The position numbers and the translations under genes are program-made. A model generated the notes under the pieces. That model was not told where the DNA came from and did not search any database. It saw only the letters and a program-made list of their open reading frames with translations. Of a DNA stretch of 60,251 nt, positions 12,387 through 59,693 are shown piece after piece (the first letter of the stretch is position 1; every line of letters begins with the position of its first letter). The stretch comes from a virus (taxonomy: Duplodnaviria > Caudoviricetes), in IMG/VR virus record IMGVR_UViG_3300032257_000013, positions 1 to 60,251 of that record; one strand, 5' to 3'.

Positions 12387-12827
12387 GTGGCTAACGATTT
12401 AAATAACTGTAATTTTATAGGCAGACTTGGTAAAGATGTCGAAATTCGTTACATGCCTTCAGGTGGTGCGGTCGCTTCATTCTCTATCGCTGTAGGCAGT
12501 CAGTGGACTGATAAACAGTCTGGCGAAAAACGAGAAGAAACGGAATGGGTGAATCTAACCGCTTTCGGAAAACTTGCTGAGATATGCGAAAAATATTTAA
12601 CGAAAGGCTCTCAAGTGTTCGTGTCTGGACGCATGAAAACGGACAAGTATGAAAAAGACGGTGTAACGCGGTATTCAACAAAGGTGATTGTTGACCGCAT
12701 GCAGATGCTTGGTAGCAGGGGTGACAACCAACAATCAGCACAGAATAACAGCACTGCTCAGGCTAAGACTGCACAGCCTGCGCAACAAGCGAATGTTGAC
12801 GATTTCGACGACGACATTCCATTCTGA
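12387..12827 (+). CDS. ssb: Single-stranded DNA-binding protein
   Basis: IGRLGKD.E.RY OB fold; DFDDDIPF tail. Confidence 0.96.
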   Translation: MANDLNNCNFIGRLGKDVEIRYMPSGGAVASFSIAVGSQWTDKQSGEKREETEWVNLTAFGKLAEICEKYLTKGSQVFVSGRMKTDKYEKDGVTRYSTKVIVDRMQMLGSRGDNQQSAQNNSTAQAKTAQPAQQANVDDFDDDIPF

Positions 12828-57453: not shown

Positions 57454-58029
57454 TCAAAACACCCCTACCTCATCTAACCGCTCAGTTATATGCCGCTCCG
57501 CTTGCTCAAGATGAAGATAAATATTGTTATAACACTCCGACAAAAGCTTGGACCATCCCGACTCACTAAACGATTGTCGAGTTATATACATATTTTTCGC
57601 CATCATAGATCGTGTTACTCGCCGTTCCAGCCCCAACTCCTTATACCTAACGTTTTCAATGACACAGCCTGCCATCCCTCTAATCTTTGCGATTTCCTTT
57701 CGCTCGCCTTCATCGCTTCGGTGCAGCTCATGCGCAAGAAAGTCACTCGCCCCTAGCAGTCTTGCATTGTCCCAGGCACCGTACACTTCGCAGAATAGCC
57801 GGCCAGCTGCATGAACCGGGCAGTTATTGGCAATGACGCTGATCGTATGGGCCAGGTCTTTAACATCCTCCAGCGAAATACCGCTGCTTCCCCCCTGCCT
57901 ATTCGACTTCATAATGGTGCCAATCTGAGACTTAACGCCAGAACGTAGCAACACTTCTTCTGCCCACCCAATAGCTGACTGTGCATTATCGAATTTTATT
58001 ATTGGTTTTTCTTCGACTGCTTGATTCAT
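57454..58029 (-). CDS. Putative late-gene activator/antiterminator (Q position)
   Basis: Last early gene before pR'/tR'; C-terminal HTH-like segment TRSMMAKNMYITRQSF. Confidence 0.5.
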   Translation of the reverse strand: MNQAVEEKPIIKFDNAQSAIGWAEEVLLRSGVKSQIGTIMKSNRQGGSSGISLEDVKDLAHTISVIANNCPVHAAGRLFCEVYGAWDNARLLGASDFLAHELHRSDEGERKEIAKIRGMAGCVIENVRYKELGLERRVTRSMMAKNMYITRQSFSESGWSKLLSECYNNIYLHLEQAERHITERLDEVGVF

Positions 58030-58031
58030 TC

Positions 58032-58358
58032 CTACCTCCGCCAGTTATTGCCATATCTCGATGATCGTTTCTTCCTTGCCGGTCGTTTTTTCTTGACTGA
58101 AGCTGACTTCTTTGACGTGCTTGGGGCTATCATCTGCAAGTATTCCGGCATGGACAAACCCATCGATGACAGCCTTTCCGCTGATGCCATCAGGGTCACA
58201 CAACCGTTTTCTTCTGGAGTGGATATGGATCCGGACACGGCTTTGTGGATCCAGTCCCTCAATTTCTTCCGATCCCAATGGTGCATTGCCAGGATCCGGT
58301 TCCATGTTGGCAGCCTGAACGGTAGAACAATCCTCATTACCAGCTTTTCTTCTTTCAT
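58032..58358 (-). CDS. Overlapping ORF carrying the RusA-like N-terminal half
   Basis: IVLPFRLPTWNRILAMHHWDRKKLRDWIHKAV resembles the RusA LP.P.S.N..W N-terminus. Confidence 0.55.
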   Translation of the reverse strand: MKEEKLVMRIVLPFRLPTWNRILAMHHWDRKKLRDWIHKAVSGSISTPEENGCVTLMASAERLSSMGLSMPEYLQMIAPSTSKKSASVKKKRPARKKRSSRYGNNWRR

Positions 58359-58365
58359 CCGTCAT
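58045..58365 (-). CDS. Overlapping ORF carrying the RusA-like catalytic half
   Basis: VRIHIHSRRKRLCDPDGISGKAVIDGFVHAGILADDSPKHV; ATGA coupling to upstream gene. Confidence 0.65.
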   Translation of the reverse strand: MTDERRKAGNEDCSTVQAANMEPDPGNAPLGSEEIEGLDPQSRVRIHIHSRRKRLCDPDGISGKAVIDGFVHAGILADDSPKHVKEVSFSQEKTTGKEETIIEIWQ

Positions 58366-58625
58366 TCCTCCGCTCCGCACCAGTCACATTCCTTGCCAAC
58401 TTCAATCGAGATATCACCTTCAACACAACAATTATGCCGCCACATTTCAGGATCGACTCTAAGTTTAAAATGACTGCTACGACACTTCGGGAAAGTTCTC
58501 GGCTCAGTTAATCCGCAAGAATACGTGTCTTGGAATATCTCGGTGCGATGCTGGCAAGCTTGGCACCCGAGCTCTTTAATTTCCATTGACTGCGCCTTGC
58601 GTTCTGTAACAGTTAAGTCAGTCAT
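58362..58625 (-). CDS. Cys-rich hypothetical protein
   Basis: CQAC..C..C..CC..CDWCG; coupled. Confidence 0.55.
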   Translation of the reverse strand: MTDLTVTERKAQSMEIKELGCQACQHRTEIFQDTYSCGLTEPRTFPKCRSSHFKLRVDPEMWRHNCCVEGDISIEVGKECDWCGAEE

Positions 58626-58951
58626 AAACTCGCCTCGTAAACCGACAACACTTTTGCAAGGTGCGGCTTCACTCTTGAATCCATCATCCTGATAACGTCG
58701 CGGACAATCTCTGCCGATTCATCATGAGATTTACTTTTCACATGCACGGCCTTAGCCTTACTTTTTACAATCCCATAAAGCAATTCATTTTTATCTTGAA
58801 TGGATATAATTAATTTTTCTTTTACTAAAATTTTTAATGTTTTAGCTACTGAATCAGGATCATAAACAGGAATATTCTGAGACACTTCTAAAGGCGTCAT
58901 ACCAATCCTTTTTTTACTAAGCACTTTAATCACATTATCGCGAATACTCAC
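58622..58951 (-). CDS. Winged-helix-like hypothetical protein
   Basis: GMTPLEVSQ..SVAKTLKILVKEKLI pattern. Confidence 0.5.
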   Translation of the reverse strand: MSIRDNVIKVLSKKRIGMTPLEVSQNIPVYDPDSVAKTLKILVKEKLIISIQDKNELLYGIVKSKAKAVHVKSKSHDESAEIVRDVIRMMDSRVKPHLAKVLSVYEASL

Positions 58952-59238
58952 TTAATCACCCCCTCTCGTATTGCTCGCTCAATCGTTGCTATAACAAGAT
59001 CCCTTTGATCAACATTATGTTTTGCTTCCCAGGACTCCCAACCAATCCGGTGAAAGTCATCGTGCTCTTCTCTCGTTAAAGGCATAGTAAATAAATCTGA
59101 TGGCTTTACGCTGCCGCCATACCCTCGCCCTTTTATATGATGCGGGTCATCAGCAGGAAGCCCCGATATGCAGGATGGCAATTGCTTAACCCAGTCTTTA
59201 TACTTCTGGCTTCGGAATGGTTTTATTTTCTGCATCAA
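58948..59238 (-). CDS. DUF968/HNH-like nin-region protein
   Basis: KY.DWVK.LP.CISG..ADDPHH..G...K.SD.F..PL..E.H...H. Confidence 0.75.
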   Translation of the reverse strand: MMQKIKPFRSQKYKDWVKQLPSCISGLPADDPHHIKGRGYGGSVKPSDLFTMPLTREEHDDFHRIGWESWEAKHNVDQRDLVIATIERAIREGVIK

Positions 59239-59693
59239 ACAAATCCTAGTATCTGCGCAACAACATCATCAAGATCATCCCGCGTGTAATTCGTTAGCAC
59301 TCGCCGCAATATCACATCTGCGACTTTTGAATAGACTCTTTCAAATTCCTCATCATCCATATTCGCAAAACTAATGCTGTCCGCTTCCGCTCTAACATCA
59401 CCATTCAGATTTGCTACCGGCTCATAGAATCCAGCGGCAATAATGCAGTCTTTACGAAACCGCTCTTTATTTTTTTGCACCGGAAGCCCTTTGTATTCGA
59501 TTTCATCTGGCTCGAACGCATCAAACCCAACATTCAGCATAGTGAAGAATTTTTGAAGAAATATGTAATTCCTTGGCTGCTTGCACTCGATAGAAACAAC
59601 GTTGCCCGTTTTAACTTTTCCAATAAACGCTGCCGTTTCATCGTCATCAGGAATAAGTACGCCGCCCGGCATTTTTTTCATGTAGCCTTTCAC
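59235..59693 (-). CDS. DUF1367 family nin-region protein
   Basis: PRN..F..KFF..L, AGFY, SISFANMD..EF..VY. Confidence 0.8.
   Translation of the reverse strand: MKGYMKKMPGGVLIPDDDETAAFIGKVKTGNVVSIECKQPRNYIFLQKFFTMLNVGFDAFEPDEIEYKGLPVQKNKERFRKDCIIAAGFYEPVANLNGDVRAEADSISFANMDDEEFERVYSKVADVILRRVLTNYTRDDLDDVVAQILGFV

Follow-up and report, generated by a model that had tools for sequence, protein, structure and literature searches.

In lambdoid phages, the rusA gene is found in a nin-like recombination module. Two frames of one DNA are both used in the lambda spanin genes: Rz1 lies inside Rz, in its +1 frame, and the two products are different proteins of a membrane-spanning complex. Programmed -1 frameshifting is known from dnaX, from orfAB of IS3 and IS911, and from the phage tail chaperones G/GT. 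Fully overlapping genes that are both under selection at the protein level are rare in double-stranded DNA phages, and we know of no case in which a single enzyme fold is divided between two such frames. The RusA protein of Escherichia coli (DLP12 prophage; PDB 1Q8R, 2H8C, 2H8E) is described as a mixed sheet of four strands with two flanking helices, and its residues D70, D72, K76 and D90/D91 are named as critical (PMC1636454). A full-text search of the literature gave, in the passages that it retrieved, no description of a RusA that is overlapping, frameshifted, split or heterodimeric. The PRFect paper does place 'RusA/RuvC' among the genes 'known to contain a frameshift'; in the accessible text of its references 35-42, a resolvase is named only in the 1991 ruvC paper, and therefore this remark was not taken as a precedent for a RusA frameshift. 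What appears to be new in the locus described here, as judged from its sequence, is a RusA-type resolvase that is split, with its halves in overlapping frames.

The locus lies in a complete virus record of 60,251 nt with direct terminal repeats, analysed at its full length and referred to below as the window. Its neighbours belong to a nin-like module that includes NinB (59235-59693) and a DUF968/HNH protein (58948-59238). The initial annotation had described two overlapping frames that are both open, and both ORFs were indeed found at the minus-strand positions given in Table 1. Frame A is the -1 frame relative to frame B, and the overlap is nearly complete in both ORFs. The ATGA coupling proposed for frame A is present as well, since its ATG overlaps the TGA (58364-58362) of an upstream ORF (58625..58362). 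The ATG of frame B is located 7 nt behind a GGAGGA Shine-Dalgarno sequence, and the duplex energy to the anti-Shine-Dalgarno is -9.5 kcal/mol for the B start and -6.2 kcal/mol for the A start. A second assembly, represented by a Logan contig of run X1 (which may be the source sample), agrees with the window at every position of 57900-58500 and contains no indel; the sequencing runs listed with the segment comprise one DNA run (maybe the source sample) and no RNA run.

Table 1. Features of the two overlapping frames, with positions in the window.
Feature	Position	Strand	Description
Frame B ORF	58358..58032	minus	108 aa, MKEEKLVMRIVLPFRLPTWNRILAMHHWDRKKLRDWIHKAV...; stop TAG 58034-58032
Frame A ORF	58365..58045	minus	106 aa from ATG; 111 aa from GTG 58380
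Twin-start region	58356..58371	minus	GGAGGA 58371-58366; A ATG 58365-58363; B ATG 58358-56
Frame B layout			N-terminal strand and helix of RusA type; tail with an EY..MIRP-type motif and a basic end
B residues 9-41 (RIVLPFRLPTWNRILAMHHWDRKKLRDWIHKAV)	58236..58334	minus	strand and helix predicted to complete the A fold
B tail motif EYLQMIAP, residues 72-79	58122..58145	minus	+1 frame of A G-I-L-A-D-D-S-P
Frame A residues 1 to ~40		minus	forced reading of the B N-terminal region; RusA catalytic core after
A core	58048..58263	minus	72 aa, strand-helix-strand-strand; equivalent to E. coli RusA 48-116
A catalytic motif	58129..58197	minus	D57, D59, K64, D68, D78-D79

The two genes that flank the overlap deserve a brief description. 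The upstream ORF (58362-58625, minus strand) encodes 87 aa with many cysteine pairs (C..C ... C.....C ... CC ... C..C); it gave no family match at a meaningful E-value, and a relative of it holds the same position in one of the related loci (L004). The downstream gene (57454-58029) encodes 191 aa without known family, and its ATG at 58029 lies 15 nt after the stop of frame A. The last codons of B, TGG CGG AGG TAG, include GGAGG just before this ATG, and because of this sequence the translation of B to its end could also couple the downstream gene.

Frame A had been regarded as the catalytic half of RusA, and this assignment is confirmed by profile searches, by fold and by the catalytic residues. 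Residues 36-108 match PHROG 34, 'RusA-like Holliday junction resolvase', with an E-value of 1.3e-12, and there are additional matches to PHROG 1682 (8.4e-7) and PHROG 9203 (0.0098). The Pfam RusA family (PF05866) gave no match for A or B at E<=1, none among 30 frame-A homologues at E<=10 and none in the six frames of the 60,251-nt genome. When the A profile was compared with PDB sequences, RusA entries were the sole matches, over the catalytic stretch (E 0.24-0.4). An AlphaFold2 model of the A core, made with 77 sequences, has a pLDDT of 85.5. The top five rows of a Foldseek search with this model are E. coli RusA chains, with a TM of about 0.7 on the query; by VIA-align, its residues 1-72 fall on RusA 48-116 with a Z of 6.0-6.4 and an rmsd of 2.1-2.4 Å over 67-68 residues, the next-best entry after RusA reaching 4.8. 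In HMMER alignments with 1q8r and 2h8c, the motif residues listed in Table 1 align, in that order, with RusA D70, D72, K76, D80 and D90-D91, and the catalytic D/D/K/D/D columns are invariant or at least 90% conserved in alignments of 30 and 77 sequences. Together, these results show that the A core has the RusA fold and keeps the catalytic residues. As the model aligns to RusA 48-116 only, A lacks the residues that correspond to RusA 1-47.

Frame B is less easily placed by similarity. Searches of B against Pfam, PHROGs and PDB returned chance-level rows only, and no score in the ESM Atlas reached 0.9. The family was aligned in two sets, A3 (16 sequences) and A5 (82 sequences). Positions P13, L16, P17, T18, W19, N20, L23, M25 and R30 of the N-terminal part are nearly invariant among 82 sequences, and Y73, I77 and P79 are invariant in A3. 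The initial annotation had called the tail of B featureless, a description that had to be abandoned: a conserved EY..MIRP motif is present in the tail, which finishes in a basic stretch that probably binds DNA. Modelled alone with 82 sequences, B has a pLDDT of 64; its first 16-18 residues are unstructured, helices are formed at 19-24, 27-45, 58-65 and 70-77, with disorder at the basic end. Some short B proteins (P0043-45) are devoid of exactly the 15 residues that would overlie the A catalytic motif, which counts in favour of two separate chains; scans with two of them (P0044 and P0045) found further overlapped loci only.

Related loci (L002-L159) were obtained from IMG/VR by pattern scans with frame A, frame B and the family alignments, and by one genome scan, and were anchored on the A motif D.DG.S.K or on the B motif P-T-W-N. 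The first set contained 63 distinct loci, and 82 were distinct after a second scan. A further relative, GenBank record BK063671 (L001), holds a 72%-identical stretch in which both frames are likewise open. In B, the consensus LP.PLPTWNR.LAM..W.RKK.R..IH..V precedes the A core, IHIHS.R.R..D.DG.S.K, and this two-frame layout was found in all fetched loci but three: in L066 the two parts are separate genes, in L146 B is truncated, and L069 runs into the end of its contig. The distance between TWN in B and the catalytic D in A is 104 nt in 59 of the 63 loci and 110 nt in 4 of the 63, so that the offset is always 2 mod 3. The RusA-like N-terminal part and the catalytic part lie in different frames in 82/82 distinct loci, among which the identity of the core falls to about 37-40%. 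The initial annotation had proposed to test whether homologues keep both frames open with the same split, and the same 2-mod-3 offset does recur in the 82 distinct loci. No single-frame fusion was found among 30 frame-A protein clusters or among 15 frame-B clusters, and no single-frame gene among the related loci fetched. B and A co-occur at every locus, either overlapped or adjacent.

The distribution of the family was also estimated with a profile of frame A, which matched, in 1.84 billion proteins, 1911 representatives at E<=1e-3 (ordinary RusA relatives may be among them) and 637 at E<=1e-10. The best 150 of the 1911 matches all belong to the split family itself, and 135 of these best 150 begin at profile position 11 or earlier. 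Because the early profile positions are the frame-A reading of the conserved N-terminus of B, these early-starting matches suggest that the same overlap is present in those 135 representatives. The split family is nearly absent from deposited phage genomes, with one GenBank phage record at the DNA level and two by tblastn. Three prophage-like copies were found in MAGs, namely of Methylophaga, a sponge symbiont and Marivita. In BK063671 (record 12539-12826), the annotated gene is frame B only, as a 'hypothetical protein', and the RusA-like frame A is without annotation; the host label of this record, Methanomicrobiales, is odd beside the proteobacterial MAGs that hold relatives.

Several variants of the arrangement were noticed among the related loci. 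A divergent branch (L142-L145) has P-S-L-N in place of P-T-W-N in B and D.DN...K in place of D.DG.S.K in A; the two-frame layout is retained, and the tail of B is rich in Ser and Thr and without a clear EY..MIRP motif. In L146 (about 1120-2100), frame B stops after 45 aa (...LPTWNRILTMTRWERKRLIK*), and the -1 frame continues into an ORF of ~300 aa unrelated to the RusA core, which may be a gene inserted into the core or replacing it. In other members (L001/L009/L118, L015 and the protein P0020), frame A reaches further upstream and starts with a common segment of the M(R)W(T/S)EE.Y.DFL type, so that, as read from their sequences, these frame-A proteins appear to have an extra small N-terminal piece before the forced linker.

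The maintenance of two open frames over the same DNA was compared with what the coding of A would produce by itself. For this, the synonymous codons of the A core were resampled with the codon usage of the flanking ORFs, over a span from -27 to +126. This resampling predicts an open B in 6.5% of cases; across the A core, B is in fact open in 62 of the 63 loci, and the third frame in 0/63. Measured directly in windows of 51 codons, the +1 frame is open in 13% of cases (32/247) in the flanking long ORFs of the loci, and in 9.7% (24/248) in the long ORFs of the window itself. The double openness is far above chance. At the amino-acid level, the mean pairwise BLOSUM62 of B over the A core is 0.75 versus -0.19 in the simulations, for 15 sequences below 65% identity (z 15; the loci are mutually related, and therefore this and the other z-scores overstate independence, the effect sizes being large all the same). 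The control frame gives z 5.5 in the same test, which is the share owed to common descent. The excess is concentrated in the columns E-Y-L and I-R-P of B, which score 2.5-5.8, the S-P columns of A over the same bases scoring 0.05-1.3; against synonymous resampling, the B tail-motif columns reach z 9-12. The tyrosine of the EY motif in B requires in A a codon for Ile, Val or Leu that ends in TA. In the opposite direction, frame A is open across the N-terminal region of B in 54/63 loci versus 30% expected, and the conservation of A amino acids beyond the part forced by B sets in only ~54 nt downstream of the TWN threonine codon, shortly ahead of the first strand. These data show that, in the DNA they share, A and B are each under purifying selection.

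The joint modelling of A and B, which had been proposed as a check on the split, gave a complex with an ipSAE of 0.75, against 0.17 for the best control, a pass that may reflect likeness to RusA because RusA structures are solved. The ipSAE mark is reached by 58 of 80 solved complexes and by 2 of 110 mismatched pairs. Between runs, at least 95% of the contacts are the same, and the partner pLDDT is at least 75. In the model, B residues 4-16 pair with the last strand of A (97-106) with very low expected error, and the B helix 33-44 lies on A 56-75, which puts the strand and the helix of B where RusA residues 1-47 would sit. The model therefore supports the view that B completes the RusA fold of A, and it is on this model that the assignment of the B N-terminus depends. 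It would fit a fused chain equally well, and in this sense it speaks for the completion of the fold and not for assembly in trans as such.

Whether the two frames yield two chains or one has to be decided on other grounds. A programmed -1 frameshift, or transcriptional slippage, between ...IHKAV and RIHIHS... would give a single mini-RusA of ~100 aa, with full-length B as the unshifted product. The direction and the phase suit such an event, A being the -1 frame of B in every overlapped locus; in the window the stronger ribosome-binding site belongs to B, the openness of B would be accounted for as well if one start gave two products, and a fused chain is as compatible with the complex model as two chains are. 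The slippery site itself is what these loci do not conserve. The initial annotation had seen no canonical slippery heptamer, and a scan of frame B of the window for X_XXY_YYZ, from 30 nt upstream to 78 nt downstream of the TWN threonine codon, likewise found none. Near the junction such a heptamer occurs in only 12 of the 82 loci, scattered over six or more different positions, and the longest run of A or T in the 82 loci is at most 7 nt. In 7/82 loci the RKK codons of B contain A_AAA_AAG or A_AAA_AAA, and because of these seven loci a frameshift product may be made in some members of the family. Nevertheless, a frameshift would not need A to be open over the N-terminal region of B, as it is more often than expected, nor B to be open and conserved downstream, and this counts for two chains. 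The nucleotide conservation at the junction is explained by the two protein sequences, and the IH..V of B is retained in short B proteins that lack the overlap. Start codons point in the same direction: they are present in frame A in 81/82 loci, the exception being L053, which has no ATG, GTG or TTG within the open part of A, and candidate B starts are present in all. In 17/82 loci the A start is exactly 4 nt before the B start, and 13 of those 17 read NTGA+ATG/GTG across the stop of the upstream gene; the window has a looser version of these twin starts, ATGA and then an ATG 7 nt on. In the loci whose frame A is interrupted upstream, candidate start codons for A are present at T+44 or T+53, preceded by a Shine-Dalgarno-like sequence that the W-E-R-K-K codons of B form. 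The A starts vary in position, and the Shine-Dalgarno is weak for many of them. The most telling locus is the sole clearly un-overlapped one, L066 (1287-1716). It encodes a short B of 80 aa that retains the EY..IRP motif and a basic tail, followed by A with its own ATG; the two share only 53 nt, and A is in the +1 frame relative to the short B, which argues against a frameshift. The +1 frame of A in L066 still reads a vestigial ...EYSKTITTSTSKKS...KKKRKK tail, and the B frame is closed by stops upstream. A duplication origin of L066 was not supported, as the nucleotide score of 16 between the tail of the short B and the A core was reached by 334 of 500 shuffles. The initial annotation had offered both a two-chain resolvase and an unusual recoding event; two chains are favoured over a fusion because the slippery site is not conserved, because of the twin starts and because of the separate genes of L066, and we regard the frameshift as improbable.

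Two chains might also be the products of overlapping genes with separate functions, in which case A would be a trimmed nuclease and B an unrelated small basic protein with a DNA-binding or regulatory role. B has no detectable sequence relation to RusA, it has a conserved tail motif of its own, and it exists in short forms without overlap; when modelled alone, it is mostly helical with a disordered basic end. What makes this account unlikely is that the A core, covering RusA 48-116 only, is without the first strand and helix of the fold, and that the first 16 residues of B, unstructured alone, pair with the last strand of A in the complex model (0.75 vs 0.17). The co-occurrence of B and A in every locus, overlapped or adjacent, argues in the same sense. 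It is scarcely credible that a rusA pseudogene is decaying here after a recent frameshift, or that the assembly has an indel, with double openness as a product of chance. One fold divided over two frames is exactly what a fresh 1-nt indel yields, but the same offset is present in 82 distinct loci with core identities down to about 37-40%, and openness and amino-acid conservation are far above expectation. The reading is contradicted, moreover, by the lack of any single-frame close relative in the searches and by the second assembly, which is identical and free of an indel. In agreement with the initial annotation, which had doubted a simple pseudogene, the conserved offset, the selection on both frames, the absence of single-frame relatives and the identical second assembly all speak against decay.

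We consider it likely, with some reserve, that two separately initiated chains, encoded by nearly fully overlapping genes, assemble into one RusA-type Holliday-junction resolvase. Translation of B would begin at an ATG of its own, which follows a good Shine-Dalgarno sequence, and B would supply the first strand and the first helix of the RusA fold, followed by the EY..MIRP tail and the basic end. A would start at the ATG that overlaps the stop codon of the upstream gene, and would supply the strand-helix-strand-strand core, which contains the catalytic Lys and the Asp residues that bind metal. The chains would then assemble in trans, the strand of B pairing against the last strand of A. By analogy with RusA, two such assemblies probably join in an (A.B)2 dimer that cleaves four-way DNA junctions in phage replication and recombination. 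We infer that both frames are translated, that the chains assemble in trans and have enzyme activity, and that the tail of B has a role. A more ambitious proposal, which we put forward tentatively and with slightly more doubt than belief, is that this is an obligate two-chain enzyme domain contained in ~330 bases, regulated by re-initiation at the twin starts, whose overlap derives from a frameshift-split rusA and whose B tail was overprinted. According to this proposal, ribosomes ending at the upstream gene would re-initiate at either of the adjacent starts, and a single message would in this way yield the two chains in a set ratio. A frameshift in an ancestor would have split a rusA gene, and the overlap would then have become fixed; the out-of-frame continuation of the N-terminal piece would have become a new conserved module, EY..MIRP plus basic tail, that overprints the catalytic core.

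If the two-chain reading is confirmed, the locus would provide a natural model for a frameshift that splits a gene without killing it, for the origin of new protein sequence by overprinting a catalytic core, and for the possible control of a subunit ratio by twin start codons. The arrangement has a practical side as well. Gene callers retain one of the two frames, and public protein sets hold either frame. Hundreds of phage resolvases have probably been missed or mis-annotated, because gene callers keep one frame only and BK063671, for instance, lists B alone.

The locus can finally be compared with the systems mentioned at the beginning. As in dnaX, in orfAB of IS3/IS911 and in G/GT, the N-terminal part is in one frame and the C-terminal part in the -1 frame. 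Unlike those genes, A and B have no conserved slippery heptamer; the zero frame, B, has no stop soon after the junction and continues under selection, and the -1 frame, A, is open far upstream of the junction. The likeness to E. coli RusA (PF05866; PHROG 34) consists in the strand-helix-strand-strand core of A and in the position of the locus, in a nin-like recombination module beside NinB. RusA, however, is one chain of 120 aa, whereas here the first strand and helix are on a second polypeptide, in the other frame; in addition, B has a conserved tail without counterpart in RusA, and the spacing from D.D to K in A is one residue longer. With Rz/Rz1 the locus would share the use of two frames of one DNA, whose products are both needed for one function and bind each other. 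The difference is that A and B appear to be two pieces of one enzyme domain, and that their overlap covers nearly the whole of both genes.
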